NCBI GenBank assembly: GCA_963749655.1
Contig: CAVVOB010000012.1
Span: 32,001-96,000, forward strand
Source of the DNA: Nitrospirota bacterium
Lineage (GTDB): Bacteria; Nitrospirota; UBA9217
Length of the DNA: 64,000 nt
Direction: 5' to 3'
In this document: positions 1-15,060 of the stretch, piece by piece
How the letters are laid out: each line of letters begins with the position of its first letter
Numbering within the stretch: the stretch's first letter is position 1
The notes under the pieces: generated by a model
Told to the model about the DNA's origin: nothing
Seen by the model: the letters and a program-made list of their open reading frames with translations, nothing else
Databases searched by the model: none
Translations under genes and position numbers: made by a program

Positions 1-113
1 TCATCGAACAGGACGATCAGGAAGCCCCGCACCCTCGGTTGGTCGCCGTCGATCGTGGCGACGAAGCAGACGGGGTTTTCCCGAACAAACCGCATGACCT
101 CCTCTTTTGACAT
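1..113 (-). CDS. Pyridoxamine 5'-phosphate oxidase family protein, N-terminus (runs off window)
   Basis: Manual translation from ATG 113: MSKEEVMRFVRENPVCFVATIDGDQPRVRGF, with the family-typical ATxDGxQPxVR motif and an AAGGAG RBS upstream. Not in the ORF track. Confidence 0.75.
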   Translation of the reverse strand, partial: MSKEEVMRFVRENPVCFVATIDGDQPRVRGFLIVLFD

Positions 114-633
114 GGCAGTCTCCTTTCGTTCCCGGCTGTCCCACTATAAAGAATCACGATGAGGGACGCCTTCAAAATCCGATCATTTTTTTTAAGAATT
201 CCATTATTCTTCAGGAGCTGAAGAAGTATCCCGTGACAAGTGCAGTCCCCGCGTTCCCCGCGTCTCCGCGTGAGGCGCCTTCTTCTGTTAAGGAACGTGC
301 TGAAATAGCGGAGGGGACATCTTGGTTTTTGTATCACGCGGAGGCGCGGAGGAAGGCATTCTTAGGGAGGCCGAAGTTATCATGGTAAGTTTATTGTCCA
401 CATGGCTTAGCTGCTGAACGAAAGGAAGTGATCTCATGGGAAACGGAACAGGCGGCAGCGAGCATTGCAGAAGCAAAAGGGGAAGAATGCGAAAGACGGG
501 GAAAACAGTCATGAAAGATACATCATTCTTGCGGCAGGGGACAGGCCGGTGGTGTCCCTCCCCGTTTTTTTGTGTCAGGGAGGGGCTCCGGTCCCCTGCG
601 GTTGCGTCTCGTCAAGCAACAGGCGCCTGCGAT

Positions 634-1020
634 TTATTTCAGCCCGTCCACGCTCCATTTGACGCCGCCCCGGCAGGCAATGAGGAGGAAAACGAAACAG
701 TAGAGAACGGCCAGTTCGCCTTGGTTCACTGCCGGAAAGAACTTGGGTCCCAGCTGGAACTTCCAGTGGAACTGGATATACGCCACTGCCATCTCGCCGC
801 TGCAGAGGAAGGCCGCCCAGCGGGTCTTCAATCCCAGCATGACCGCGAGCCCCGCGACGAGCTCGATGAGCCCGCCGAACCAGAGTTGGGACCCCAGGGG
901 CGGCTGGAAGTCGGAGAGTATTCCCAGGATCTTCTGGGCGCCGTGGAACGCGAACATGAATCCGGTGATGATTCGCATCAATGCATAGGCGTGGTCGGAG
1001 TACTTTGCAAGCATTTTCAT
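634..1020 (-). CDS. DoxX family membrane protein
   Basis: RIITGFMFAFHGAQK...GLIELVAGLAVMLGLKTRWAAF...NQGELA motifs, four TM segments. Confidence 0.9.
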   Translation of the reverse strand: MKMLAKYSDHAYALMRIITGFMFAFHGAQKILGILSDFQPPLGSQLWFGGLIELVAGLAVMLGLKTRWAAFLCSGEMAVAYIQFHWKFQLGPKFFPAVNQGELAVLYCFVFLLIACRGGVKWSVDGLK

Positions 1021-1198
1021 GAGGGCATCCTCCTTAACTGTGCGGTGATGGCATCTTGATAGAATTATACCCCCGGGAAAAGGAGGCGGGGGATTTGAGG
1101 GGAAATATTCTCTGGAAGACCGGCATGGGTCAGACGGAGGGCGCCTTCCTATCGGGGGGCGATCTTCCGGTGAATCGTATCAATCCCGCCGGGGCCTG

Positions 1199-2611
1199 CT
1201 AGGAAGGGGTATCAGGTCCATCTGGACGGGATAGCAGCGGGAGGGGAATATTTACCGACACACAGGTGCCGGCATCGGAGGTGAACATGACGGTGCCGCC
1301 GATTTCGGCGGCGCGGACCTTCATATTCGATACGCCGCGGCCCTTGCCGGAATGCGCAGCATGGTCGTAGCCGAGCCCGTTGTCCCGAATGGTAAGCGAG
1401 ATTCGTTCCTTGTTCACCTGAAATCCCACGGTGACATTTTTTGCTTTCGAATGCTTGATGACGTTGGTGAGGGCCTCCCGGTAGATCCGGAACAGGTGCA
1501 GGCACAGAAGGCTTCCCGGCCTCGTAACGCTTTCATCAATTTCCGCTTTTAAATCGAATGCGATCGCGTGGTGCTCGACGGTCTTTGTGCCCCGGTTGCG
1601 CAGCTCGGCGATGAGCGTGTGCCAGTTCAGATCGTTCCGGTCGAGACTGTACATAAGGCTCCTGATCTCTCCCATCCCTTCGCGCGACAGCTCCAGAATC
1701 GTATTCAGCGATTTGCTGATATCCTCCTGCGAAGATGCTTTCAGGGCGACTTCGGTGAGCATGCATATGTTCGTCGTTATGCCGCCGATGCCGTCGTGAA
1801 TGTCCATGAGAATCTTTTGAAACGCCTGCTGGGCCGCCCGGCGCTCATCAAGCATCGTATTAAATGCTGTTGCAAGCTTTCCTACTTCGTCCGTTCCCGT
1901 TACGGGCACCTGGGTGACTATGCCTCCCTGGCCCATGACCCTCACATTCTCAGTCAGCGCCTCCAGAGGATGCGTGATTTTTTTCACCCCCAGATATACG
2001 ACAAAGGCGCTCGCGCAGATGAAAATAAAGGCGATGATCGCATTTCGTTTCAGCATGCACAGGATCTCCCGGTCCAGGGCTTCTTTGCCCAAAACGATCC
2101 TTACATGCCCGATCACGCGGGTATTCGTGCCGGGCTCCTGATCGCCGAAATAGAGCACCTTTTCTTCATTCGGATAAATCGTTAGAACGACGGGCTTCAT
2201 GAACTCCAGCGTACGATCGGTAGCCTGTGTCGGCGTGGCCAGTTCCGTTTTTATGACCTCATCAGGCGTCCCGGGTTCCCGATTAAAATCTGTATTCGCC
2301 GACGATTTGCTGATCACGTATAACTGCTTCATGTCGGCGTTGTATATTTCCACGAGAACGACGTCCGGTTCAGCGGCTACACCGGCGGCAACGTCCTTCA
2401 AAAGATCCCTGTTTTCCGCAAAAACGCCCGTCCGAGAACTGTATGCAAGGAGGTTCGTCAGCAGCTCGCCCTTGTTCGTGAGCTCCTTTCGCACCCGTCG
2501 CTCCTCCGAGAAAACGGCGAAAAGCGTATAGACCGTGAGCATGGTCACAATAATGAGAATGGATGCGCTGAGCAGCCTGAATACGAGGCCTTTTTCAGGG
2601 AATAATTTCAT
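1199..2611 (-). CDS. HAMP-domain sensor histidine kinase (HisKA_3/NarX-UhpB-like)
   Basis: Two TM segments flanking a periplasmic domain, HAMP (PLEALT...DEVGKLATAFNTM), H-box DIHDGIG, N-box EALTNVIKHS, G-boxes DNGLG and GRGVSNM. Start taken at MKLFPEK. Confidence 0.9.
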   Translation of the reverse strand: MKLFPEKGLVFRLLSASILIIVTMLTVYTLFAVFSEERRVRKELTNKGELLTNLLAYSSRTGVFAENRDLLKDVAAGVAAEPDVVLVEIYNADMKQLYVISKSSANTDFNREPGTPDEVIKTELATPTQATDRTLEFMKPVVLTIYPNEEKVLYFGDQEPGTNTRVIGHVRIVLGKEALDREILCMLKRNAIIAFIFICASAFVVYLGVKKITHPLEALTENVRVMGQGGIVTQVPVTGTDEVGKLATAFNTMLDERRAAQQAFQKILMDIHDGIGGITTNICMLTEVALKASSQEDISKSLNTILELSREGMGEIRSLMYSLDRNDLNWHTLIAELRNRGTKTVEHHAIAFDLKAEIDESVTRPGSLLCLHLFRIYREALTNVIKHSKAKNVTVGFQVNKERISLTIRDNGLGYDHAAHSGKGRGVSNMKVRAAEIGGTVMFTSDAGTCVSVNIPLPLLSRPDGPDTPS

Positions 2612-2615
2612 TTCG

Positions 2616-3566
2616 CTACTCCACTTTTTCCGCATTTCGAATTGCCTCTTCGTCGAGCCGTAATCCGATTTTTGCAGCAACCTTCGTGTTCACGATGAGG
2701 TGGGGGGTTCTTGCATAAGCGCGAGAGGGAGCTCTTTCGCCCCCGGTCAGGTGCCGTACCTGCTCTCCGGCCTGGACTCCCATATCGTAGGGGTCAATCG
2801 TCAATGCGGCCACCGCCCCTCGCTCGACGTATTTTTTTGCGAAGGAGAAGACCGGCAGCTTGTTCTGAAAGGAAAAGAGCATCAGGTACTCGATTGTTTC
2901 GGAGTTGACGAGCGTCGAATCCGGCAGCATCCACAGAATATCAACCTTGTCCCGCAGTTCATTCAAAGCCGCAGGCACCTGCTGCGGATTGCCGACCGGC
3001 TTGATGATCAGGGTCATCCCTCTGTTCCGGGCGACGGCTGACGCCTCCTCGACGAAGGGGCCCGTATGTTCAGGGTCAAAGAGCACCCCGATCCTTTTGG
3101 CCGAGGGAAAAAGCGGGGCCATGGCTGCAAAGTACGTTGCCGGCGCAATGTCCATGCTCACGCCCGATACGTTGTCCGCAGAAAGAACCGCCGTTTCGGA
3201 CGGGATCACCATGGTGTAGATTATCGGAACGTCCTGGATAGTTCGCGCTTTTTTGAACGCCTTGGTGCCGACGGCGAAGATCGCGCTGGGGCGCTCGGCT
3301 TCGACGATGGCCAGCACGTCGTTGTCCGAAAGCCCCAGCTCTTTCATCGTGCAGCCGCAGGCGGTCTTGAATCCCTGAATTGCGTCACGGTAGGGTTTGA
3401 TATCGGTGTCTTTTATGACGATGACTTCATGAGCTGCTGCGGGGAGGGGCAGACCGAACAGGCACAGCATGAGCGCAGCCCCGACAACGACGGCGCTCAG
3501 TTTGCTGCCGTGAATAATGCAGGGCCGGTGAGTGGCAGATGGACGGAGGTTATGACTTGTCCGCAT
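2616..3566 (-). CDS. ABC-type substrate-binding protein (ABC_sub_bind-like) with no permease or ATPase nearby
   Basis: Signal peptide ending AAA-HE; IFAVG, GVS, KRIGVLFDP, WMLPD, YVERGA, GVQAG and LIVNTKVAAKIGL motifs. Start overlaps the radical SAM stop. Confidence 0.85.
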   Translation of the reverse strand: MRTSHNLRPSATHRPCIIHGSKLSAVVVGAALMLCLFGLPLPAAAHEVIVIKDTDIKPYRDAIQGFKTACGCTMKELGLSDNDVLAIVEAERPSAIFAVGTKAFKKARTIQDVPIIYTMVIPSETAVLSADNVSGVSMDIAPATYFAAMAPLFPSAKRIGVLFDPEHTGPFVEEASAVARNRGMTLIIKPVGNPQQVPAALNELRDKVDILWMLPDSTLVNSETIEYLMLFSFQNKLPVFSFAKKYVERGAVAALTIDPYDMGVQAGEQVRHLTGGERAPSRAYARTPHLIVNTKVAAKIGLRLDEEAIRNAEKVE

Positions 3567-4857
3567 TATCGTATTTGACGTCTTGAAGTACGAGCGATTG
3601 CAGCGCTTTGTCGAAATAGTGCTTTCTGCAATCGATACCCTGCATGCTTCCGTCATGGATAAGTTTCATGTACTTGCATCCCCCGAAACAGAGCGGCAGA
3701 TAGCAGCAGGAAAGGCATTTCTCGTTTTTCCAGTCGTCAAGCGCATGGGATCGCCGGTAGTCGGCCAACCCGTTCCTGAGATCGCCTACGCTGCAATGTT
3801 CCCTTCCGATCATGCCGGGGCACTTGTACAGCGTTCCGTCGAAGTTCACTACAATGTTTTCGTGAATTGCCATCATGCAAATCGCCGGACCGACCTTCCG
3901 CGTGCGAAATCCGCGCTTCAAAATTTCTTCTCTCAGAAAGGTCCCGGCGTCGATCAGCCATGGCTCTTCCGACGACATGCAGCCGTCATGAAAATCGGGA
4001 GGGGAGAATTCTCCCCGTTCGTTGATGACCGGGCCGAAACTCACGAATGAAATTTTTTCGGGGGTGAGGCCCGTGTCGAGGAAATGATCGAGCAGCCGGG
4101 GGAAGACCCGGTAGTGCTCCCGGGTATAATTGCCACCGACCTGCACATCGATCAGACCGCAGACGTCGCGGAGATTGCCGACAATAGTGTCGAACGACCC
4201 CGTGCCGGATTTGAAGGGCCTGAACAGGTCATGTACCTCGCGGGGACCGTCCAGAGTCACGCCTGCTCCGGCAAGCCCGAGAGGCTTCAGTTTTTCCACG
4301 ATGCGCCGCGTAAGCAGTGTCCCGTTCGTGATCAGGGAAAATGTGAATTCCATGTTCCGTTCTTCCGCAAGGCCCCTCATTTCCTCGGCAACACGAACGA
4401 TCATGTCAGTGCTCAAGAGCGGTTCGCCGCCGTAGAACGTGATATTGATTTCGTCCTTGTCTTCCAAGTCCCTGGACCGGACAAAAGCGGTGAATTGCTT
4501 TGCTGTCTCGACGGACAGATAGTGTTTGCCTTTTCTCGTGCCTTCGAAGCAGTATTTACATCCGAGGTTGCAGTCGAGATTGAGCACGACGAGGGCGCAG
4601 AACGCGTTGTTGCCGCTGTTCAGCTCATCGAGGTATGTGCGCATCTGCCGCTCTTCGGTCTGGGGGCTCCGCACGAGGAACCCCTCGGAGCTGAGAGTCC
4701 TGCGTTCTCCGGCCGGCAAACGGCCTTTCTCGATATCATCGAGAACCTCAGGCGAAACGCTGACCACGGACGTCGTCCGTGTTGAAAAGAGCGATACAAG
4801 ACCTGGTTCTTCAGGATCATGAAAGCGTATGCAGTATCTGGATAAGTGCATGGTCAT
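3550..4857 (-). CDS. Radical SAM/SPASM peptide maturase (geopeptide maturase-like) with N-terminal RRE-like domain
   Basis: CNLGCKYC radical SAM motif, FYGGEPLL, TNGTLL, TLDG; SPASM cysteines ICMMA...YKCPG...CLSCCYLPLCFGGC...IDC; N-terminal ~60 aa ending L-x-x-x-GFLV as in RRE/PqqD folds. Confidence 0.9.
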   Translation of the reverse strand: MTMHLSRYCIRFHDPEEPGLVSLFSTRTTSVVSVSPEVLDDIEKGRLPAGERRTLSSEGFLVRSPQTEERQMRTYLDELNSGNNAFCALVVLNLDCNLGCKYCFEGTRKGKHYLSVETAKQFTAFVRSRDLEDKDEINITFYGGEPLLSTDMIVRVAEEMRGLAEERNMEFTFSLITNGTLLTRRIVEKLKPLGLAGAGVTLDGPREVHDLFRPFKSGTGSFDTIVGNLRDVCGLIDVQVGGNYTREHYRVFPRLLDHFLDTGLTPEKISFVSFGPVINERGEFSPPDFHDGCMSSEEPWLIDAGTFLREEILKRGFRTRKVGPAICMMAIHENIVVNFDGTLYKCPGMIGREHCSVGDLRNGLADYRRSHALDDWKNEKCLSCCYLPLCFGGCKYMKLIHDGSMQGIDCRKHYFDKALQSLVLQDVKYDNADKS

Positions 4858-4863
4858 CTCAAT

Positions 4864-4898
4864 GAAAAAGAAAGAACAGGGGAGAGCGAGCTCTCCCC
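4864..4898 (-). terminator. Intrinsic terminator/attenuator between precursor and maturase
   Basis: Perfect 8-bp stem GGGGAGAG/CTCTCCCC (4879-4898) with a 4-nt loop, followed on the minus strand by TGTTCTTTCTTTTT. Confidence 0.75.
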
Positions 4899-4911
4899 GA
4901 ATGAGTTGTTG

Positions 4912-5100
4912 CTAGCGACGGTACGTGATCATTGTCCCCCAGGGACAGCATAATGGCATTGAGGCTTTGGCCTTTGCCGACTTCTTCTTGGCTGTTTTCT
5001 TTTTTGCTGCCTTCTTCTTGGTTGCCTTTTTCTTTGTTGCTTTCTTCTTTGCCGACTTCTTCTTTGTTGCCTTCTTCTTGACCTTTACGCGTGCCGCCAT
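4912..5100 (-). CDS. Putative RiPP precursor: Lys-rich (KKKxx)7 leader plus Cys-Cys core, 62 aa
   Basis: Strong RBS GAGGAGGTG before ATG 5100; MAARVKV-KKKAT-KKKSA-KKKAT-KKKAT-KKKAA-KKKTA-KKKSA-KAKAS-MPLCCPWGTMITYRR; lies directly upstream of the rSAM/SPASM gene. Confidence 0.75.
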   Translation of the reverse strand: MAARVKVKKKATKKKSAKKKATKKKATKKKAAKKKTAKKKSAKAKASMPLCCPWGTMITYRR

Positions 5101-5147
5101 CTTTTTCACCTCCTCATTGGATTGACTTCCCCGACATATGTCATCCC

Positions 5148-7022
5148 CTAAAACTTGCAACGAATTCCGGCTTCGTACCATCGTTCAGGGTTCTTATATA
5201 CATCTAGTACATACTGGGAGCCGTTAAAAATATTGTGGGCAGCCGCAAAGACCTCCAGGGACGAATATTTGCGAACAGACATCTTTTTTGTCATGGTGAG
5301 ATCGAATATAAAGGAATCGTATTTCCCGTTGTAGGAAGGATCCGCGTTCCAATCGACATAGCGTCCCTGGAGCAGGGCCTTGAGCGATCGCGTGTCGTCG
5401 TAGCGGAGAGCAAGATCATAGACCTGTGTCGGTATGTTGTGCAATCTCTGGCCCGTAGCGGCGTCAACTGCATCGACGTACTCCGCGCCCGCAGAGAGGG
5501 AGGTATTGTATACGGGAACGGTCTTCATGGCGAACTCAATCCCCTGGCGGCGCTGGCTTCCGCCATTTACGAGCAATATTGTCGTCGCCGAGCTTGTATC
5601 TACGGTGATGGCGTCATCGATGTCGTTCCTAAATGCGGAAAGTTTCAGCCAGAGGGACTTCACTGCAGTCGTTTCCGCTCCCACTTGGTACGCTATGACC
5701 GTCTCCATTTTGAGATCGGGATTAGCGGTGAAGTAAATGCCGTCCCCGAAGGTTTCTGCAAGCGTGGGGATGCTGAATCCCCGTGCGGCTGAAGCCCTCA
5801 GAATTGTGCTGTTCGCAATGCCGTAGGTGAGCCCCAGGCTCGGACTTGCCATATCTCCATTCGTATTGGTGCTGTCATACCGGATGCCGGGGGTGACTGA
5901 AAGCTTGTTGAACGTAAGGGTATCATTGGCATAGAAGGCAGATTTCTTAATTCCCTGCTCCCCGTTCGCCAAATTGTTCCATTTCAGCCTCTTGTCATCA
6001 TAATCGGCCCCCGCGACGATCGTCTGAGAGGGACTTTTCCAGGTCAGTTTCGCGCTTGCGCCGTATCCCTCATCAACAGCTCTGCTTTCCTGGAGAAATG
6101 CGCCCGTACTGAGCTGATGGTTCGTACTTATAAAGTCCTGACGAAGAGTTCGGAGAGAAACGTTCAGGTCCAGGTTCTTGCGGAGAGTGGAATTCAAGGC
6201 CATGGTTGCATGCAGGATTTCCAGGGAGTTCTCATAGGACAGATCAAAGAGTGGATCAAGTCCCGTATTGCGGGTTGTATTCATATAGCCGACCGCAGCA
6301 AGAATATCGGTATGGTCCGAAAGATCATAGGAGAATTTTGCATAGGTATTGTTCTCCCTGACATCGGAGTAGAGCGTCAGACCGTCCGACTGCAGGTTCC
6401 CGGCGGAGAGATAGTAACCGAACCCGTTCTGCTTGCCCCGCGCCTCCGCACGCGAGTCGATTGTGTTCCTTGTTCCGTAGGATGCGGAAACCATACCGCC
6501 GCTGTTGTCTTTCGTTCCGGACTTGGTGATGATGTTGATTACGCCCCCGAGGGCCGAGCCCCAGGCCGAGGATGCCGGACCTTTGATGATCTCGATTTTT
6601 TCGATGTTCTGCACGGGGAGAATCCCGAGGTCGGCGATATTGTTGGCGACGTTGTTCAGGATGATTCCATCAATGATCACGGTCACGTGCTTGGTGTCCG
6701 ATCCTTGTATATATGCTTGGGCTATCTGTCCGGGGCCCCCGGTCATCCATACGACGACGCCGGGGACCGTATTCAGCACCTCGGCAACGGTATGGGCGTT
6801 CATGAGCTCGATGTCCGCGGCCGTGACCACGGAAATGTTCTCGGCGGTCCGGGAAATCGGTTTGGAGCTCCGCGTTGCGGACTGCACAACAAGCTCTTCT
6901 TCTTTGAAGTACATCAGGAGAAAGTTTTTTTCTTCGTCGGGCTGCGCCAGGGCGGGGGAACAGAAGGTCAACAGATAGGCGATAGCGGCTAGAACGCTGA
7001 CGGTCTTGGCAAGTCTTTTCAT
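5148..7022 (-). CDS. TonB-dependent receptor
   Basis: Signal peptide, TonB-box-like ELVVQSATR, plug motifs (EVLNTVPGV, IEKIEIIKGPASSAWGSALGGVINIITK), NPDLKME, C-terminal Phe. Confidence 0.93.
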   Translation of the reverse strand: MKRLAKTVSVLAAIAYLLTFCSPALAQPDEEKNFLLMYFKEEELVVQSATRSSKPISRTAENISVVTAADIELMNAHTVAEVLNTVPGVVVWMTGGPGQIAQAYIQGSDTKHVTVIIDGIILNNVANNIADLGILPVQNIEKIEIIKGPASSAWGSALGGVINIITKSGTKDNSGGMVSASYGTRNTIDSRAEARGKQNGFGYYLSAGNLQSDGLTLYSDVRENNTYAKFSYDLSDHTDILAAVGYMNTTRNTGLDPLFDLSYENSLEILHATMALNSTLRKNLDLNVSLRTLRQDFISTNHQLSTGAFLQESRAVDEGYGASAKLTWKSPSQTIVAGADYDDKRLKWNNLANGEQGIKKSAFYANDTLTFNKLSVTPGIRYDSTNTNGDMASPSLGLTYGIANSTILRASAARGFSIPTLAETFGDGIYFTANPDLKMETVIAYQVGAETTAVKSLWLKLSAFRNDIDDAITVDTSSATTILLVNGGSQRRQGIEFAMKTVPVYNTSLSAGAEYVDAVDAATGQRLHNIPTQVYDLALRYDDTRSLKALLQGRYVDWNADPSYNGKYDSFIFDLTMTKKMSVRKYSSLEVFAAAHNIFNGSQYVLDVYKNPERWYEAGIRCKF

Positions 7023-7186
7023 ACAGGCCCCACTTGATGGAAAAAGATATGGTGATGCGAACTAAGGAATCAGGCTTCGGAGCAAGTCCGCCGCCAGGGT
7101 TATCGTTTCGAAGGTTATCAGGCAACAATGCCGCGTGAAGGTATACGGAAGAGGGAACGGCGCATCGGCGCCTCTCCACGGGGACG

Positions 7187-7215
7187 AGAGTACACTAAAT
7201 ATGAAAAAATTGCAA
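7187..7215 (-). promoter_or_regulatory. Sigma70-type promoter of the TonB/RiPP operon
   Basis: Minus strand TTGCAA-17 nt-TACTCT. Confidence 0.55.
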
Positions 7216-7333
7216 GAATCTCTTGCGGATACAGAATTTCCCGGCGGTCCGTTTCAGCGTGATCACGGTACGACGCGGGCGCGGAGAGGATATATCTCTT
7301 CCGTCTGAAGAATAGAACGTGTCGAGGGGTTTT

Positions 7334-8053
7334 CTATTGCGGTATATCGATCCTGTCTTTGTTCCTGAAGCTCCTGACCAGGATTTTGCCGCGCGACCAG
7401 GTGTAGATATGCACCCGAGCCTTGCTCCTGGCCGTTACGCAGGTTGCGCCGAAGTCGTCGTAGTGAATGGCCGCGAAGTTGTCGCAGGCTATGCCGACCA
7501 TTCTTTCCCGCGCGATCATTGCCTTGAACGAGGCATGACGTTTTTCCGAATCCAGATGGGGGCAGTACAGCCCCGGGCGGAGACCGAGCGACCGGACTTT
7601 TATGTAGGACCAGTTTTTTCTGCCGGAAAAGGAGCGTGAATCGGAATGGCCCCACTCGTGCCAGCAGATAGCGCCCGCACTCAGGCCGGCAAGCACCGTT
7701 CCTTCATGCGCGGCCCTGATCAGCATCCTGTCGACGCCGAAACGGCGCCACATCTTCATCATACGAAGCGTATTGCCGCCGCCTACATAGATAAGATCAG
7801 CTGCCTTGATCTTCCTTGCCGCAGCGGCGCGGTCCTCGGGCCTCCGGTAAAGAAGGAGATGGTCAGTTCTGCATCCGAGCAGATCCCCGTAGATATGGTC
7901 AAAAGCCCTGCGGTAATCTTCGTCATCATTGTTCGCCGTGGGGATGAAGAGCGCCCGCGGAGACTTCTTGCCCGTGAGCTTTACGATGTATGTGTCGATC
8001 GGGAGGGTCTGCTTCTTCTTCAGGCTGCCGCCGCCGATGGCAATGATGTTCAT
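7334..8053 (-). CDS. Peptidase S51 (peptidase E-like)
   Basis: IIAIGGG, FIPTA, IYVGGGNT, nucleophile elbow GLSAGA, CPH. Confidence 0.88.
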   Translation of the reverse strand: MNIIAIGGGSLKKKQTLPIDTYIVKLTGKKSPRALFIPTANNDDEDYRRAFDHIYGDLLGCRTDHLLLYRRPEDRAAAARKIKAADLIYVGGGNTLRMMKMWRRFGVDRMLIRAAHEGTVLAGLSAGAICWHEWGHSDSRSFSGRKNWSYIKVRSLGLRPGLYCPHLDSEKRHASFKAMIARERMVGIACDNFAAIHYDDFGATCVTARSKARVHIYTWSRGKILVRSFRNKDRIDIPQ

Positions 8054-8646
8054 GTCCTTCTCCTTGTTCTTTCCTGCTGCACTTCCCGATATCTGAAGCA
8101 GTCGACGAGGTGATCGTTGACCATCCCCGCCGCCTGCATGAAGGCATAACAGATGGTCGAGCCGACGAACTTGAAACCCCGCTTCTTCAGGTCCTTGCTC
8201 ATGCTGTCTGATTCCGGCGATGTTGCCGGGATCTGGGTGAGGCGATTGAACCGGTGCTGTATGGTCTTATTGCCGACAAATTGCCAAATGTATGCATCAA
8301 AGGATCCGAACTCCTTCCGGATCTCGATAAACTTTTGTGCGTTCGTGATCGCTGATTCGATCTTCAGTCTGTTGCGTATGATGCCGTCGTTTTTCAAAAG
8401 ACGCTGCACATCTTTTTCATCGTAGCGCGCAATAACGGTCGGATCGAATCCGTTAAAGGCTTTTCGGTAGTTCTCGCGTTTCCGGAGCACGGTGGACCAC
8501 GAGAGCCCTGCCTGCGCCCCGTCCAGCACGATGAATTCGAAGAGCTTACGGTCGTCGTGGAGCGGTACGCCCCATTCCGTGTCATGGTAGGCGATCATGA
8601 GAGGATCGTCGGAAGGCCAGGAACATCGTCTTATTTTCTTAGACAT
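8050..8646 (-). CDS. tag: DNA-3-methyladenine glycosylase I
   Basis: RCSW...YHDTEWG, QAGLSW, GIIRNRLKI, GFKFVGSTICYAFMQAAGMVNDH...C. Confidence 0.95.
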   Translation of the reverse strand: MSKKIRRCSWPSDDPLMIAYHDTEWGVPLHDDRKLFEFIVLDGAQAGLSWSTVLRKRENYRKAFNGFDPTVIARYDEKDVQRLLKNDGIIRNRLKIESAITNAQKFIEIRKEFGSFDAYIWQFVGNKTIQHRFNRLTQIPATSPESDSMSKDLKKRGFKFVGSTICYAFMQAAGMVNDHLVDCFRYREVQQERTRRRT

Positions 8647-8846
8647 GGAGGTCTCCAAAACGTCTCTGGCATATGAGAGGCTTTTGAAGAGAAGATACTA
8701 TACCGTGAGAAACAAGGCAAGTGTTCGATGCGATTTTTTAGGTATGCGGCTGTAGCTGCGGGCCAGGAGGGCACGAGCCGTTATCCAGCAGTCGTAAACG
8801 ATTGAAGAGTTCGAAGCAGCGCGGAGTCGGGTATGCGTGCTGTGAA

Positions 8847-9978
8847 TCAGGTTCCGCCGGTCAACATCCTTTCAATGATATCCCAGCACACCCTTCCGCC
8901 CTCGGCTCCGCCGACATTGGTCACGACAACGAGCCCCTTTTTTCGTGCAGGATTGATGGCCATATAAACCAGGAAATTGCCGGCAGAGCCGGCGTGCAGG
9001 TGTAGAGCTTCTCCATTGACGTTCTGAACCCCCCACCCGGCGGCATAGGCTGATTCGAAGGGCCCGCCGGTCATGACCCGTATCTCGTGGAGCTGCACGA
9101 TCATTTGAGCGGTGATTCCCGAGTCATCCTGCCCCATCAAACCGCGAAGATGGAGCTGAACGAACCGTGCATAATCCCGGAGGGTCAAGCTGACGATCCC
9201 GGCCGGAGCGAGCACCTCCGGGATGGACTGATCGATGACCCGTGCAGGCGCGGCAGCTCCCCAATTCGAGGTGTTGCCCACCGGCTGATCAGAACCGAAG
9301 TCCTTGGGAAAGCCAAAATATGCCTTGATGCCCAGGGGGCCGAAGAGCAGTTTGTTCATGGCCTCCTGATAGGAAAGGCCTGTGCGGCGTTCGATGACCG
9401 CTCCCAACGCAGCATAGCCGTTGTTCGAATACAGGTAACGGCCTCTGCGGATCCAGGACGAACCTTGGAGCACCTCGACCAAGATACTGCGTTCTGGACC
9501 CGTGGTACATGCGCAGATCGTCCCACGTGGCAGGGTCTCCGCCCGGCGGAAGTCCTGCCTGATGTGAAGCAAGGTCGCCGAGGGTTACGTCACGGTAGGC
9601 AGAGTCGGCTGTTGCCGCGAACTCGGGGAAGATCTCCAGAAGCCGTGTGTCCCAGGAGAGCGAACCGTCCTGCATGAGCTTCTCCAGTGCCGTAGCCGTC
9701 ATGGCCTTGGTGCAGGAACCGAGCTGATAGAGTGAATCTGCCGTCACCGGACGTTCGCTGTCGAGCCGCGCTTTTCCGACCGGACCATAGGTGACGATAT
9801 CGTCTACGGTGATCTCGGCGACCCCCAGCGACGGCACAAAGTACCGCTCGCGAACGCCCTCCAATATCGGTGCGGACCATGTCCGGCGTCAGCGTCCGAA
9901 ACGGGCCGGGACATCCGCTGACATGAAGGTCAGCGCTCCAATCGCAATCATCTGATAACAGCGTCTCAATGTATTCAT
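8847..9978 (-). CDS. Serine hydrolase (beta-lactamase/S12 family), probable lipoprotein, broken by several indels
   Basis: Fragments in different frames carry SxxK (GSCTKA), LASHQAGL, YSN and HAG; MNTLRR...LTFM/SGC signal peptide spans a frameshift. Confidence 0.75.
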
Positions 9979-9987
9979 TATTCACCC

Positions 9988-10940
9988 TCAGAAAGAAAGA
10001 CTTGCATTTAATCCCATGACTGCGCCGTCGTCAATGGCAAGCTTGTTGTCCTTTGACCCGATCTTTCGGTTGAACTCCCATCCGAGCGAGGCGTTCAGGA
10101 CACGACGGTCCGATGGTCAATATAATAGAGATACGTCCAGTCAAGGCCCGCGCGCTGAGCAGAGTAGGCGACGCTTTTCACATTCGGCCCTTCCAGCCGG
10201 TACGCCCAGCTATTGCCGGCATAGGACAGGCGGAGGATGTTCTGCTCAGTGACTTTATAGGAAATTCCGCCGCCCGTCGACATCGACCAGTCAGGATGGG
10301 GGGAGAAAGCAAAATTGAGCAAGGGGTATCCCACCGTGATTGTCCATCGGTCATGGGTAGTGTTGACGTACTCTACGACGGGGTATATCTGGTCTTCCAG
10401 GGTATCCGTCTGGACATAGGCATACCCGAAGGCCCATGCTATGCCGGGTTCGCGGGAGACTGCGGCCAGGCCGACAAGGTCGAAGGTATCGCGAACGGTT
10501 ATCGACGGGCTGTCGGTCCAGCTTCGATTGCATCGGATTGACTGGCTGAGCGACCAGTCGCCGGAGGTGATGTGCTTGTATACGAGCGCGGCCCCTGCAT
10601 TTTCCAGCCGGTCAGGCATGGCAAAACCGTCAGGCAGAGCGAGTTTTCGATCGAGCTCCCGCCTGCCGTACTGAATGCCGGCAAGCACCTGGTTGCGTTC
10701 GTTGTTCCATATATTGGACGCCGCAAACAGATAGTCAAAGGAAATGCCGGTGTTTTGCCCGTCACTCGTATTCGCGCTGTCGTCTCGTGAACCGCCCGCG
10801 CCGATCATATGAACATCCCTCATAAACGAGGGGTTCGTCGCTGCATCAAAGAAAACATCCGCCCCGGCCGCGCCTGCTTTTGCCATGAGCGCTCCTGAGC
10901 TGAGCAATACTATTGCGATACTACGGATGTACTTGTTCAC
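9988..10940 (-). CDS. Putative outer-membrane beta-barrel protein (frameshift near 10100)
   Basis: Signal peptide and alternating beta-strand pattern; an alternative frame continues VLNASLGWEFNRK...GLNASLSF* ending in the OMP-type terminal Phe. Confidence 0.6.
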
Positions 10941-11199
10941 GGATGTGTTCTCCTCTTTCTGAATATCTGTGATCGCCGATTCCCGGGAGACGGTCCGTTG
11001 GCGGGAATATACTGAATAAACCGGGTCTTGCCATGCGATCTGAATCTGTAATGATTCCGAGTATACCGGATCGGACGGTATACGTCGTCCCGCCCGATAG
11101 GAAGGGAAAACTTTTTTCGTTAGATTTACAACACGTTATGCAAAAAGGGATAAAAACACAATCAGTTGACCGGATATCCGGTTACGTTTCTCAGACCTC

Positions 11200-12428
11200 C
11201 TAAATGGTCTGTTCCGGGCCCTTCTGATTCTTCCTGTACTGAGAAGGAGTCATGCCCGTATTTTTCTTGAAAGCCGAATAAAAAGCATTTTTGGAATTGA
11301 ATCCCGCGTCCATTGCGATCCCGAGGATGGAGAATCGGCCGGATTCGGGCGAGCAAAGCGCTTTTTGGGTTTCCTGGACCCGGTATTCATTGACGAAGTC
11401 AAAAAAACTCTTGCCCAGTTTCCCGTTGATCACCTGAGAAAGATGATGGGAAGATACGTCGAGCATATTCGAGAGCATCGGGAGGGTAAGTTCCATTTCG
11501 AGATAGGGTTTCTTCTTTTTCATAAGGTCGGTGAGTCTGGAGAGGATCTCCCCGGCCTGCTGATCGCTGAGCGAGGATTTTGCATATTTTCCAGTTTCTT
11601 CCGGTTCCCCAGGCCGCATGTGATGTTTCGTCCGGTTTGTCCCGTCGCTGTCCCGTTGTGTCGCCTCATCGGGGGGAAAGAGTTCGGAGGCGGTAAATAT
11701 CTTCGTCTGGCTGATGCCTTTATATCCCATGACGTAAATGATGCCGACAACCGCAAGGTTGTAAATAAAAGCGGCCTGAAGAAATATTCCGTAAATCGGC
11801 AACAGAATGGTGACCAGTAAAAAGATTCCGAGCAGGAACAGGAAAAGAAGGAGAAGGTTCCTGAGCCAGGAAAGATTGATGCGCTCGATGGAGGAATAAT
11901 TCTGTTTGATGGTGCGGGAATGCACTGAGAGCAGACGGAGAGACAGGATGAGGTATCCGGCTATCTGTACGGTGAAGACGAGGACCATGGGATTTGCGAG
12001 GCCGGAGTAATTCTTGAACAAGCTTTGGAGGAGCCACTGGTTCGCTTTAACGTCGGCGTTTAAAAGAAAAAGCGGCGCCAGGGAGGCGGCGAAAATGACG
12101 GCCGGCAGGAAGTGCAATAACACTCTCCATGCTTCGATCCGCTGCCAGGCTTCGTCAAGGACTTGATATAAAAATATGTGAGCGGCCCGTATGCGGCCAT
12201 TAGCGGCCATTGGAGACCGATCAGGGAAGGATACCGGAGATAGTAGTAGGTTACGGACATGAACCCGTCAACGAGCCCGAGGGAGAATACAAGAAGCAGC
12301 AAGGCAAGAAACCAGTTTGCCACGCGGTTCCCGGTCTTCATCCGAGCAAGCAGCAGGGCGAAGAACAGCCCCTGTGCCGCGCCGGCAAGGAGCAGGACGG
12401 AAATCAAGCTGATCGAAGGTGTCTTCAC
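11200..12428 (-). CDS. Membrane-anchored AraC family regulator (multi-TM N-terminus; frameshift near 12140)
   Basis: TM segments with YGPLTYFY and LLHFLP; C-terminal AraC HTH HHLSQVIN...FFDFVNEYRV...GFNSKNAFYSAFKK. Confidence 0.85.
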
Positions 12429-12471
12429 GTGAGCCTCGTTTCGTTCATCAATGTCCTCGTTGTCGTTCGAG

Positions 12472-13014
12472 TTATTTTTCCGAAGCATTACGTGCGGGTT
12501 TCAATTCCAGATACCATGCTGCGATAATCACGATCAGAAGAAGAATCGCCACGCCCAGGCCATGCCTGTCGAGAAATCCGGATGTTATGTAGTATCCCAT
12601 TATCTTCCACCGGCCGTCCTTGTCGGGCGTGAGCATGACGGTCTCGGTCGCGGAATGCAGATTCTGAAATGACGTCTTGAACCGAACAACGGCGCTCTGC
12701 TCTTCGGTCAAGCCCGGGTTATCGTCAATGAAGCTGACGGTATCGATCGTTCTGGTCATGACCCTGCCGAGAGGGCCGCGTATCAACGGCAAAGCGTGCA
12801 CCCATCTGTCCCGGTTGACCGCCGACTGGAACACTTCCGATGCTTCATGCCAGCTTGACGCATAGTCGCCCGCGTCGATGAGCGCGATCCAGTTTTCGGC
12901 AGCGGTGATCGCGGCCTTCTTCGTGCCATCCTCGTCCGCCGCTTCCGTGACGCCGGGAAGGAGCGCGCATACGGCCATGAGTCCGATGATCGTATTTTTA
13001 AAAAGTTTGACCAT
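12472..13014 (-). CDS. DUF4019 domain exported protein
   Basis: AENWIALIDAGDYASSW...R.PLG...FKTSF...ETV...DGRWKIMGYYI plus a C-terminal TM helix. Confidence 0.8.
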   Translation of the reverse strand: MVKLFKNTIIGLMAVCALLPGVTEAADEDGTKKAAITAAENWIALIDAGDYASSWHEASEVFQSAVNRDRWVHALPLIRGPLGRVMTRTIDTVSFIDDNPGLTEEQSAVVRFKTSFQNLHSATETVMLTPDKDGRWKIMGYYITSGFLDRHGLGVAILLLIVIIAAWYLELKPARNASEK

Positions 13015-13143
13015 TATGCAGTGCTGTGAAAAAGGATGGAATGGGCAGTGCCGGATTGCGAAAAATTATATCGGAATTCATCGAGGGAATAAAGAACAAA
13101 AGAAAAAAATCTGCGCGATGGGGGTGCGGATCCGCCGCCGGTT

Positions 13144-15060
13144 TTACGGTTCGGACTTCCCGCCGAACAGTTCTACAATCTTTGCTGTAAGGGCAGACAG
13201 CGAGGGGTCCCGCGCTCCCATGAGAAGAATGCAGTCTCCCGGTCGAGCGTCGGTTTTGAGTCCGGCCAATAATTCGTCGCGGTCCATTACCGCTTGCGCA
13301 CGGAACGATATTGAACCGAGGCCGGCGATGATGTCCTGCGACGAGATGTTCTTTTGCGCCGTACCTCCGGCGTAATATATAGGAAGGAGATAGAGCGAGT
13401 CGTTCTGCCGGAAGATGGCCTGGAACGTGGCGATGTATTCATCTTTCAGGAATCGCGTCGGACCGAACCCGTGGGGCTGGTACAGGGCGATGATGCGCTC
13501 CGAGAGGCCGCGCGCCGCCCGAACAACGGCTGCGATCTTTGCCGGATTGTGGGCGAAGTCGTCGACTACCATCACGTTCCCCTTCGTCCTGGTCACGGAA
13601 AAACGACGGGCCACTCCTTCGTACTGCTGTACCGCATCGGCAAGGGCGGCCTCTTCGCACCCGAAGTGCTCGCACACGCACAATGCAGCGCGGAGGTTCT
13701 CCAGATTATGATCGCCGGGAAGGGGCAGGTGGTATTCCGTACTGCCGCGGAACAGCTTGACCGATCCCGGAAGGAGCTGCTCGTGGTCGGACCGCCATGA
13801 GCCCGATCCGTTGCGGCCGAAGCGCTCATGGGCGGGAAGGGAGGCGAGGACAGGGTCGTCGGCGTTGGACGCGGTCCATGCAGACCGGGAAGCGAGGACG
13901 GAGAAGAGGCTTTTTATCTCGTCAATGGTCTTGTGGTCCTTTGAAACATTCAGGATGACCGCGGCCGCGGGCCGGTATTTCACGAGCGTGCCGTCGCTCT
14001 CGTCCGCCTCGACGACCAGGAACTCGGAGCCGCCGCCGTAGGCATTGCCGATGAGTCCCTGTCTTTCAAGCCTGCGCAGCGCCGCGCCGCTGATGAGGGA
14101 CGGCGACTTCCCGCAGGCAGTCAGAAATTCGAAGATCATGGCCGTCACCGTGGACTTGCCGCTCGTGCCTGCGACGGCGATAGTCGTTCTTGTCTCTATG
14201 ATCGCGCTCAGCACGTCCGAGCGGTGGATAACGGGAATGCCGAGACTGCGGGTAGTTCTGATGTCGGGATTCGATTCCTCGATCGCCGTTGATATGCAAA
14301 CTACATCGATGCCGGCACTGATGCCGGAGCCGTCCTGGGGAACGACGGCGCATCCCAGTCGTTCCAGTGATTGCCGGATGAATGCAGTGTCCCCGCTCGT
14401 GTGAAAACGATCGGAACCCGAGACCGCGATCCCCTGAAAACGCAGGTACTGCGCGAGGGCGCTCATGCCGCTGCCGAACAGGCCGGTGAAATGGATGCTG
14501 CGGCATTGATGCCCGTCGACCATCAGGGCGGGAGGGTCGATATACACAATGGTGCCTTCCGGGACAAGGTCAAACAAGCGGATGACGTCGAGATTGCGCA
14601 TGCAGACGCACCCGTGCGAGAGCGGCGTGCCGACCAGGTCCTCCCGTCCGGTGCCGTGAATATAAATGTACCGCTCGTACGAATCGATGCCCTCGCCTTT
14701 ATTGATCCCTTCCTCCAGGCCTTCGAGACGGAGAATGCGCGTCAGGATCAGATTGTCTCCGGTCTGACTGTGGTCCCAGTCTTCACCCGTATCCTCGCGG
14801 TCCCTGAAAATGCGGCCTGCAGGCGCGCCTGCTCCGTACTTCTCCCTGACCCGGTGGATGCCGAGCGGCGTTTTGAGCGAGTTTTCCCGGTTCCCGTGGC
14901 CGAAACGGGAGGTCGATGCATCATATCGTTCGACAACGGTCTCGTTCTCGCAGACCAGGAGCGTCTGCTTCTCGATGGATACGACGAGATAACGAGCCTG
15001 CGGGAAAGATAACAATGGGCGGAGTTTTTTGTAAATGCGGTTCAGGGGGGTTGGTTCCAT
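13144..15060 (-). CDS. YkuD (L,D-transpeptidase-like) domain fused to MurC/Mpl-like Mur ligase
   Basis: N-terminal TPLG...IYIHGT...SHGCVCM; C-terminal HFTGLFGSGMSALA, GTSGKST, VEADESDG, GVARRF, DDFAHNP, QPH; one uninterrupted 638-aa ORF. Confidence 0.88.
   Translation of the reverse strand: MEPTPLNRIYKKLRPLLSFPQARYLVVSIEKQTLLVCENETVVERYDASTSRFGHGNRENSLKTPLGIHRVREKYGAGAPAGRIFRDREDTGEDWDHSQTGDNLILTRILRLEGLEEGINKGEGIDSYERYIYIHGTGREDLVGTPLSHGCVCMRNLDVIRLFDLVPEGTIVYIDPPALMVDGHQCRSIHFTGLFGSGMSALAQYLRFQGIAVSGSDRFHTSGDTAFIRQSLERLGCAVVPQDGSGISAGIDVVCISTAIEESNPDIRTTRSLGIPVIHRSDVLSAIIETRTTIAVAGTSGKSTVTAMIFEFLTACGKSPSLISGAALRRLERQGLIGNAYGGGSEFLVVEADESDGTLVKYRPAAAVILNVSKDHKTIDEIKSLFSVLASRSAWTASNADDPVLASLPAHERFGRNGSGSWRSDHEQLLPGSVKLFRGSTEYHLPLPGDHNLENLRAALCVCEHFGCEEAALADAVQQYEGVARRFSVTRTKGNVMVVDDFAHNPAKIAAVVRAARGLSERIIALYQPHGFGPTRFLKDEYIATFQAIFRQNDSLYLLPIYYAGGTAQKNISSQDIIAGLGSISFRAQAVMDRDELLAGLKTDARPGDCILLMGARDPSLSALTAKIVELFGGKSEP

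Follow-up and report, generated by a model that had tools for sequence, protein, structure and literature searches.

A geopeptide maturase gene set linked to a TonB-dependent receptor, an orphan binding protein and a sensor kinase in Nitrospirota and Desulfobacterota: a candidate peptide-sensing circuit

The gene set

The window analysed here is one 64,000-nt stretch of DNA from a Nitrospirota bacterium, and the five genes that concern us are all read from its minus strand. They encode a TonB-dependent receptor (TBDT), a short precursor peptide, a geopeptide radical SAM/SPASM maturase, a substrate-binding protein (SBP) of the PF04392 (ABC_sub_bind) family, and a sensor histidine kinase. The window copy of the set is intact. 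The arrangement is far beyond chance, with a TBDT and a PF04392 SBP near the maturase in all 34 well-flanked orthologous loci. We read it as a candidate circuit in which the modified peptide would leave the cell, return through the TBDT, bind to the SBP and be sensed through the kinase, a reading whose chances, judged from gene content and order, we regard as evenly balanced. The genes and associated features are as follows.

5148..7022, minus strand: TBDT, 624 residues, with a signal peptide, Plug and barrel
4912..5100, minus strand: precursor peptide gene, 62 residues, with a lysine-rich leader, a C-C pair and a 10-residue tail
4972..5079, no strand: tandem array in the precursor leader, 15-nt period, 7.2 copies (Tandem Repeats Finder)
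4879..4898, minus strand: G+C-rich hairpin, then a T-rich tract, directly 3' of the precursor stop
3550..4857, minus strand: geopeptide radical SAM/SPASM maturase, 435 residues, TIGR04280
2616..3566, minus strand: PF04392 (ABC_sub_bind) SBP, whose ATG precedes a signal peptide
1199..2611, minus strand: sensor histidine kinase, 470 residues from the ATG at 2611, with the order transmembrane segment, sCache_4, transmembrane segment, HAMP, HisKA_3, HATPase_c
7023..7333, minus strand: intergenic region 5' of the TBDT, with a putative promoter

The original prediction, made from the letters of this stretch, had described five co-oriented genes with tight or overlapping junctions, and this description is confirmed: the TBDT and precursor genes are separated by 47 nt and the precursor and maturase genes by 54 nt, the maturase and SBP genes overlap by 17 nt, and the SBP stop lies 4 nt from the kinase ATG. 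Two of these starts are choices within longer open reading frames (ORFs), since the SBP frame is open back to 3656 (start taken at the ATG at 3566) and the kinase frame back to 2680 (start taken at the ATG at 2611).

The maturase and its precursor

The maturase matches the NCBIfam model TIGR04280, "geopeptide radical SAM maturase", at 582.7 bits (cut-off 400) over profile positions 1-427 of 428, and is the sole copy over that cut-off in its genome. Its CxxxCxxC motif (C96, C100, C103) and seven C-terminal cysteines (C327, C346, C381, C384, C390, C394, C410) are invariant in 15 orthologues. Pfam assigns Radical_SAM and Fer4_12 to the protein, and the Pfam SPASM model finds no match in it at E <= 0.01. 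The next-best NCBIfam matches are CefB (154 bits), TIGR04463 (153), PapB (144) and the SCIFF maturase (103), with QhpD also among them; all are far under their family cut-offs. The nearest families are Cys-directed, thioether-forming SPASM maturases, and the nearest solved structure is that of the SCIFF maturase (5wgg, 83 bits). Thus, going by its closest families, the enzyme most likely cross-links a Cys-containing core through thioether bonds. TIGR04280 is a database name, a hypothetical equivalog, for an enzyme family, and a search of the full-text literature, with subscription journals and supplements outside its reach, found no papers on "geopeptide" or "TIGR04280".

The precursor ORF lies directly upstream of the maturase gene, and its ATG is preceded by GGAGG 8 nt upstream; a strong Shine-Dalgarno sequence is likewise present at all 19 precursor ORFs of relatives with which the window precursor was aligned (loci of relatives carry L numbers below). 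Across these 20 sequences the C-C pair is invariant and the rest of the core is variable. The aligned precursors share a leader type, M-K-x-R-I-x-V-L-x-K-G, and the tail after the C-C pair measures 10 residues in the window and 7-12 in the relatives. The NCBIfam precursor model TIGR04229 matches nine of the 20 (best E 3.8e-5) and does not match the window precursor at E <= 10 or E <= 1. This miss arises because the 15-nt array, with its 7.2 copies encoding K-K-K-A-x repeats, has inflated the leader. Lysine-rich leaders are also found in L046, L054, L165, L167 and L182, and therefore represent a recurrent subtype, not decay. A Hidden Markov Model (HMM) built from 17 short precursors found no further precursors elsewhere in the window genome, a negative that is weak within this genome since the same HMM misses the window's own lysine-rich precursor.

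Conservation of the linkage across two phyla

Relatives were drawn in the first place from 401 sampled genomes of the phylum to which the window belongs. Many of the related loci come from metagenome bins with submitter-given labels, and their ORFs were called by a longest-ORF rule guided by tblastn. The maturase exceeds its cut-off in 43 of the 401 genomes, and 20 maturase loci were compared with 8-kb flanks. Among these, a TBDT orthologue adjoins the maturase in 19, an ORF with a C-C pair lies between the two in 18, and a PF04392 SBP occurs in 16, in 15 of which the kinase is next to it. By hand comparison, of the 50 places where the maturase exceeds its cut-off, at least 43 have an SBP-profile match within 4 kb. 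In L042 and L052, TBDT, precursor and maturase are kept without SBP and kinase, and the three genes also remain together where SBP and kinase are transcribed divergently.

A wider search with the maturase alignment returned 79 loci, 60 of them orthologues at 37% identity or more, from Nitrospirota and Desulfobacterota (Geobacteraceae, including Geotalea toluenoxydans JCM 15764, Desulfuromonadales, Desulfobulbales and Desulfobacteraceae). A TBDT was found in 52 of these 60 loci, a C-C ORF in 49 and an SBP in 47. Where at least 4 kb of flank is available on each side, both the TBDT and the PF04392 SBP fall within the 7-kb flanks in every case (34/34); tblastn finds the kinase in 18 of these 34, and Pfam adds it in L195, L216, L179 and L187. 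The synteny survey that the original prediction proposed as a check has thus come out positive for receptor, radical SAM enzyme and SBP in two phyla, and on this evidence of gene order the linkage of the maturase to receptor and binder is real. Trees of the maturase and the TBDT were built by a quick method with SH-aLRT as the only support; in the maturase tree the geopeptide clade comprises 51 rows (SH-aLRT 100), and the Nitrospirota rows stand beside those of Geobacter and Desulfuromonas.

Three loci from other families carry, directly behind the maturase, a half-size MFS_1 gene of 185-189 residues, covering the first half of the profile (L037:7414-7980, L053:7415-7969 and L055:7423-7980). 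It has no NCBIfam name, and its position makes it a candidate dedicated exporter; the window does not have this gene.

The receptor itself shows Plug (78 bits) and TonB_dep_Rec_b-barrel (144 bits) domains in Pfam, and no N-terminal signalling extension beyond these two. No other PF00593 barrel was detected in the 86.6%-complete assembly, in which TonB_C has two matches over cut-off. Near residue 43 lies the motif E-L-V-V-Q-S-A, which, compared by eye with the consensus, we take to be TonB-box-like. The vitamin B12 receptor BtuB was considered and rejected as an identity for this protein: the scores are 168.4 bits against a cut-off of 599.7 and 141.6 against 836, and there is no Rfam match in positions 1-9000. 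The closest relatives of the TBDT are labelled as Nitrospirota, including Thermodesulfovibrionia, Dissulfurispiraceae and Candidatus Sulfobium.

Within the window's family the TBDT matches are bimodal, with all those of at least 44% identity adjoining a maturase and all others at 37% or less. Nineteen of the 22 maturase-bearing genomes of this family have the TBDT orthologue; the remaining three cases are accounted for by a gene fragment or by contig edges. In the TBDT tree all 20 maturase-linked receptors fall into one clade of 22 (support 94), in which the remaining two rows are L063 and L078; the TBDTs of three other families form a distant, separate branch at 25-29% identity. Decayed cassettes, with split TBDTs and maturase fragments, occur in other genomes; in L195, from Geotalea toluenoxydans JCM 15764, the draft sequence shows a split TBDT and a truncated maturase. 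A Mutator-family transposase lies within the cassette TBDT at L048:11219-12484, and a group II intron reverse transcriptase/maturase (L041:3091-4422) is found upstream of a cassette with its TBDT in two pieces.

Binding protein, kinase and the missing regulator

The SBP matches PF04392 at 91.9 bits, and its nearest structures are 3lkv and 3lft. Its N-terminus is a signal peptide. In the kinase, the periplasmic part (residues 36-188) between the two transmembrane segments holds the sCache_4 domain. No permease or ATPase gene was found next to the SBP in the window or in the annotated related loci, so the gene content is not that of an ABC importer. The original prediction had gone further and named permease, ATPase, exporter, leader peptidase and response regulator as all missing; Pfam searches of the neighbours agree, finding none of the five in the flanks of the set. 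The SBP and kinase genes are translationally coupled. An orphan SBP together with a kinase that has a periplasmic domain is the gene content of a putative SBP-dependent two-component sensor of the LuxPQ kind.

The solved PF04392 proteins listed in Table 1 of PMC10443332 bind free Trp, Tyr or Phe. A corresponding idea, that an aromatic residue in the tail of the core is what the SBP recognises, was tried and dropped: F, W or Y occurs in only 16 of 45 core tails, so that an aromatic tail is not a general explanation.

The kinase had also been described as an orphan. This is true of the window copy and peculiar to it, as relatives usually carry a response regulator after the kinase as a sixth gene. 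It is a REC-GerE regulator of NarL/LuxR type in L040, L041, L043, L044, L045, L046, L048, L050 and L006, the last a locus of the window's own family, and an NtrC-type regulator beside the kinase in L049. The cassette regulators of L006, L041, L044, L046 and L048 are 57-75% identical to one another, and that of L045 is 26-28% identical to them. The kinases also vary: the window kinase has no PAS domain, whereas L044 and L048, of the same genus, combine a HAMP-PAS-HisKA_3 kinase with the REC-GerE regulator. A search of the window genome for the cognate NarL/LuxR regulator, another check proposed at the outset, was unsuccessful; the best NarL-type regulator shares no more than 31-41% identity with those of the cassettes and adjoins its own dCache_1-HisKA_3 kinase, and the cognate regulator was therefore not found in the 86.6%-complete assembly.

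A second PF04392 SBP of the window genome lies in L057 (G000:C30:8000-23000, positions 1387-13183), where two multihaem cytochromes, a 634-residue outer-membrane barrel and the SBP are followed by an sCache_3_2-HAMP chemoreceptor and then a chemoreceptor of 954 residues that carries a fused Phosphonate-bd SBP domain. Here, too, SBP and sensor go together, with no maturase present.

Promoter region, hairpin and neighbouring genes

The five genes were originally placed behind one sigma70-like promoter, a claim that is not confirmed. A consensus scan of 7023-7333 found no sigma70-like site, and TTGCAA-17-TACTCT at 7215-7187, read by eye, has only 4/6 and 3/6 hexamer matches. A sigma54-like TGGC-N7-TTGC is seen at 7096-7082, about 60 nt upstream of the TBDT start. 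It was rejected as a promoter, since such a site is present 5' of the TBDT in only two of 68 relatives and is probably a chance occurrence. No Rfam family matches window positions 1-9000 at E <= 1, and hence no cobalamin riboswitch is present there.

The hairpin at 4898-4879, between the precursor and maturase genes, is called terminator-like (minimum free energy -16.8, z = -3.0). An equivalent hairpin lies 3' of the precursor stop in 20 of 20 loci, with z <= -2 in 19 of them. Post-precursor hairpins usually serve to keep precursor message more abundant than message for the enzyme, and this one is likely an attenuator or partial terminator. Because it stands between precursor and maturase, the five genes need not be evenly transcribed.

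Outside the set, Pfam identifies Peptidase_S51 and Tag glycosylase genes upstream and a DoxX gene downstream. DoxX and Peptidase_S51 were considered as parts of the cassette and rejected, as no homologue reaches 45 bits in the 20 related loci; the DoxX protein scores 30 bits against the HvfX family (cut-off 80). Further along, at 8850-9864 on the minus strand, a beta-lactamase-fold (PF00144) gene is divided over two overlapping ORFs, of which 9289-9864 covers profile positions 11-135 and 8850-9572 covers 140-316; a frameshift in the gene or a fault of the assembly is the probable cause.

The neighbourhood bears on whether the product might be a microcin-like antimicrobial, a toxin that enters its targets via the TBDT, with the receptor kept by the producer for self-recognition or immunity-related regulation. 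Many diderm antimicrobials of the RiPP type (peptides made on the ribosome and modified after translation) do enter through TonB-dependent receptors, and the maturase of darobactin-like DynA is among the weaker NCBIfam matches. However, to carry the receptor for uptake in its own operon would make a producer sensitive to its toxin, the window has neither an immunity gene nor an exporter, and no additional gene is conserved across the annotated loci, which argues against a toxin-immunity set. We consider an antimicrobial of this kind very improbable.

A sister clade built from other parts

Eight maturases, 25-32% identical to that of the window, form a branch neighbouring the geopeptide clade in the maturase tree. 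Their best NCBIfam match is TIGR04280, at 256-308 bits and under cut-off, and they are labelled as coming from Planctomycetota, Omnitrophota, Auribacterota, Myxococcota and unclassified bacteria. Around them the layout is made up of different components. In L220, the maturase is accompanied by a TBDT, an SBP_bac_5 binder, a C-C precursor, a dCache_1-HAMP kinase and an NtrC-type regulator. L226 has NtrC, TBDT, SBP_bac_5, C-C precursor, radical SAM enzyme, an ABC exporter and a dCache_1 kinase, and L221 has SBP_bac_5, C-C precursor, radical SAM enzyme, two ABC exporter genes and a dCache_1 kinase. L231 and L233 combine NtrC, TBDT, radical SAM enzyme, SBP_bac_5, MFS and a dCache_1 kinase, and L222, L225, L227 and L228 show partial versions of the layout. 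By tblastn, no such neighbours accompany the outgroup maturases, which are from Bacillota and Atribacterota. With a non-homologous binder, another sensor domain, another regulator type and an exporter, the sister clade indicates that the same logic recurs. It is the strongest argument available, and one that suggests, from gene neighbourhoods, that receptor, binder and kinase act on the peptide.

SBP_bac_5 is the OppA/NikA family of oligopeptide and metal-chelate binders, and the L220 protein has Opp4A and the nickel binder NikA as its best NCBIfam matches, all under cut-offs. This raises the question of whether the peptide is a metallophore or cofactor carrier, a secreted C-C chelator whose loaded form the TBDT and SBP would retrieve for nutrition while the kinase tunes production. 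Such a role would fit an invariant Cys pair in an otherwise variable core and a cassette TBDT that is the only one in its genome. The layout also parallels that of methanobactin operons, in which the importer MbnT is accompanied by MbnE, an OppA-like binder without a known inner-membrane partner (PMC7558416). On the other hand, the nearest maturase families (CefB, PapB, SCIFF maturase, QhpD) form thioethers, which would consume the thiols, and the precursors of L049, L188 and L190 have a single Cys. Moreover, no annotated locus contains a linked inner-membrane permease, the SBP is coupled translationally to a kinase and not to a transporter, and neither a conserved metal-regulator box nor a metal-related neighbour is found in the annotated loci. 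On balance, we judge a nutritional carrier to be unlikely.

The sensing module without the maturase

Several observations weigh against the candidate circuit, and most of them concern how often its sensing half occurs alone. The SBP profile is found in 180 of the 401 genomes (E <= 1e-25) and the maturase in only 54 (E <= 1e-60); in one family, 63 of 76 genomes have the SBP and none has the maturase. When 20 SBP loci without a nearby maturase were compared, all 20 had a kinase homologue next to the SBP and 11 had a TBDT homologue within 7 kb; these loci hold no maturase, and no geopeptide-like ORF by the HMM of 17 short precursors. SBP-kinase pairs, and some trios with a TBDT, greatly outnumber the maturase, and the sensing module is therefore a generic one. 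In addition, the maturase-linked SBPs do not form one clade: 15 of 18 fall into one clade of 17 (starred in the SBP tree), and at least three state changes are forced. The same-genus locus L061 (G197:C3:109398-124276) keeps an orthologous SBP (46% identity) and a 908-residue hybrid kinase but has no TBDT, precursor or maturase, and the best TBDT in that genome is 30% identical; L061 is explained well by no model considered here. Two Geobacter-type loci, L215 and L184, have no kinase next to the SBP among their annotated genes. The window copy adds difficulties of its own, being atypical in its precursor, which TIGR04229 does not match, and lacking an exporter, leader peptidase and regulator, with the best regulator of the genome paired elsewhere.

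In an alternative view, TBDT, SBP and kinase would import and sense an external ligand that is not the peptide, and would do no more than turn on a RiPP whose own function, whether antimicrobial, structural or intracellular, is separate from theirs. SBP-kinase pairs and TBDT-SBP-kinase trios are, as described, widespread without a maturase, the solved PF04392 proteins take free Trp, Tyr or Phe (PMC10443332, Table 1), and the window genome's other PF04392 SBP has an outer-membrane barrel on one side and a chemoreceptor on the other. Nevertheless, the TBDT stays with precursor and radical SAM enzyme where SBP and kinase are absent (L042, L052), the maturase-linked TBDTs all belong to the one clade of 22, in which L063 and L078 are likely secondary losses, and in the sister clade the layout persists with an SBP of peptide type in exchange. 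The trios of the other families are distant paralogues, with TBDTs 25-29% identical and on a separate branch. Taken together, these points make a purely regulatory role an improbable account of the whole set.

The original prediction had itself stated that it would fail if such trios usually occurred without precursor and radical SAM enzyme and bound an unrelated ligand, or if the genes were not co-transcribed. In part this applies, since SBP-kinase pairs and some trios are indeed commoner than the maturase, but the receptors linked to maturases form a clade of their own. The circuit as predicted thus stands in part: the linkage in 34 of 34 loci, the attachment of the TBDT to precursor and radical SAM enzyme, and the rebuilding of the layout in the sister clade support it, whereas the sensing trio turns out to be generic. 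The simplest reading of the distant trios is that they would be paralogous modules for other ligands. L063 lies in a genome without a maturase match and is sister to the maturase-linked L056 on both the SBP and the TBDT trees, and L078 is a second trio in a genome with a full cassette; both are most simply read as putative receivers that lost, or never had, the producer genes.

Two further observations concern loci of this group. The kinase of L063 (7911-10316) is one 802-residue ORF with a RadC-like JAB domain C-terminal of the receiver domain, either a fusion or two genes merged by the ORF call. Near the maturase-less SBP-kinase pair of L066 lies a 1002-residue Cas9-like protein (2518-5523; HNH_4, RuvC_III, Cas9_a).

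A proposed circuit and its implications

In the proposed circuit, transcription would be graded at the post-precursor hairpin, which would let the precursor transcript outnumber those for enzyme and sensor. The maturase would cross-link the Cys-containing core, the leader would be removed, and a product of about 1-2 kDa would be sent out through an exporter encoded elsewhere in the genome. Porins do not admit peptides as large as about 10-16 residues, so re-entry into the periplasm would be possible only through the TBDT. There the SBP would capture the product, and the loaded SBP would dock on the sCache_4 domain of the kinase, which would then phosphorylate a NarL/LuxR-type regulator, encoded beside the kinase in relatives and missing here. 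This regulator would probably feed back on the operon. The loop could serve as a cell-density signal or as a report on the loaded state of a metal or cofactor carrier.

A broader proposal is that geopeptide cassettes and the sister clade together represent a general, undescribed system of peptide autoinduction in diderms with TonB-gated return, its logic built at least twice from non-homologous parts in at least five phyla, on which receiver-only genomes might eavesdrop. We put this forward tentatively, as possible but rather doubtful. Peptide signals are the rule in monoderms and rare in diderms, whose outer membrane excludes molecules of such size. If the circuit operates as proposed, TonB-gated re-entry coupled to an SBP-kinase pair would be a simple and general solution to this exclusion, and, as the linkage is conserved, the idea can be tested directly in Geobacter relatives that grow in culture. 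If the product is a metal or cofactor carrier instead, it would join methanobactin as a second type of RiPP metallophore, this one in anaerobes by which metal and sulfur cycling is driven. A RiPP family that is named but unstudied gains a concrete hypothesis, and the pair of PF04392 SBP and sCache_4 kinase emerges as a widespread, uncharacterised sensing module.

Comparison with known systems

As to family, the window set agrees with the geopeptide definition (TIGR04229 and TIGR04280) in having a maturase over cut-off, a precursor directly upstream, the leader motif and the C-C pair; it differs in the precursor unmatched by TIGR04229 and the tandem array in its leader. The best non-self NCBIfam matches of the maturase, SCIFF maturase (5wgg), the ranthipeptide maturase PapB and CefB, likewise act on Cys-containing substrates, but their scores are far under cut-offs and the geopeptide substrate has only one or two Cys. 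Those families are not known to be linked to a TBDT, an SBP and a kinase.

Regulation of methanobactin operons is by a sigma/anti-sigma pair, whereas the window set has a two-component kinase. In other respects the two layouts are close. Methanobactin operons comprise an MbnA precursor, MbnB/C maturases, the TonB-dependent importer MbnT, the OppA-like binder MbnE and the exporter MbnM; like the window set, they join a RiPP precursor and maturase to a dedicated TBDT and a periplasmic binder without a known permease, and the secreted methanobactin is re-imported (PMC7558416). The window maturase is, however, a radical SAM/SPASM enzyme and the only maturase present, with no MbnB or MbnC in the window, and its binder belongs to PF04392 and not to the OppA type, which the sister clade does use.

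Sensor kinases that depend on an SBP are well documented, for example LuxP-LuxQ for AI-2, and a review lists such pairs (PMC8050422); its text contains no occurrence of PF04392, ABC_sub_bind or TonB. The window pair resembles LuxP-LuxQ in its orphan SBP gene beside a kinase and in the presumed docking on the periplasmic domain. It differs in that the ligand would be a ribosomal peptide needing the TBDT to reach the periplasm.

Uptake by a TBDT of a self-made, secreted molecule, with its arrival reported to the transcription machinery, is known from FecA-FecR-FecI and from FpvA (pyoverdine). The window set differs in that its TBDT has no N-terminal signalling extension and in that the report would pass through SBP and two-component kinase. 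No description of a RiPP together with a dedicated TBDT, a binder and an SBP-dependent kinase was found in the literature searched. The gene set combines elements that are each known: a RiPP with its own TBDT and periplasmic binder on the one hand, and sensing by an SBP-dependent kinase on the other.

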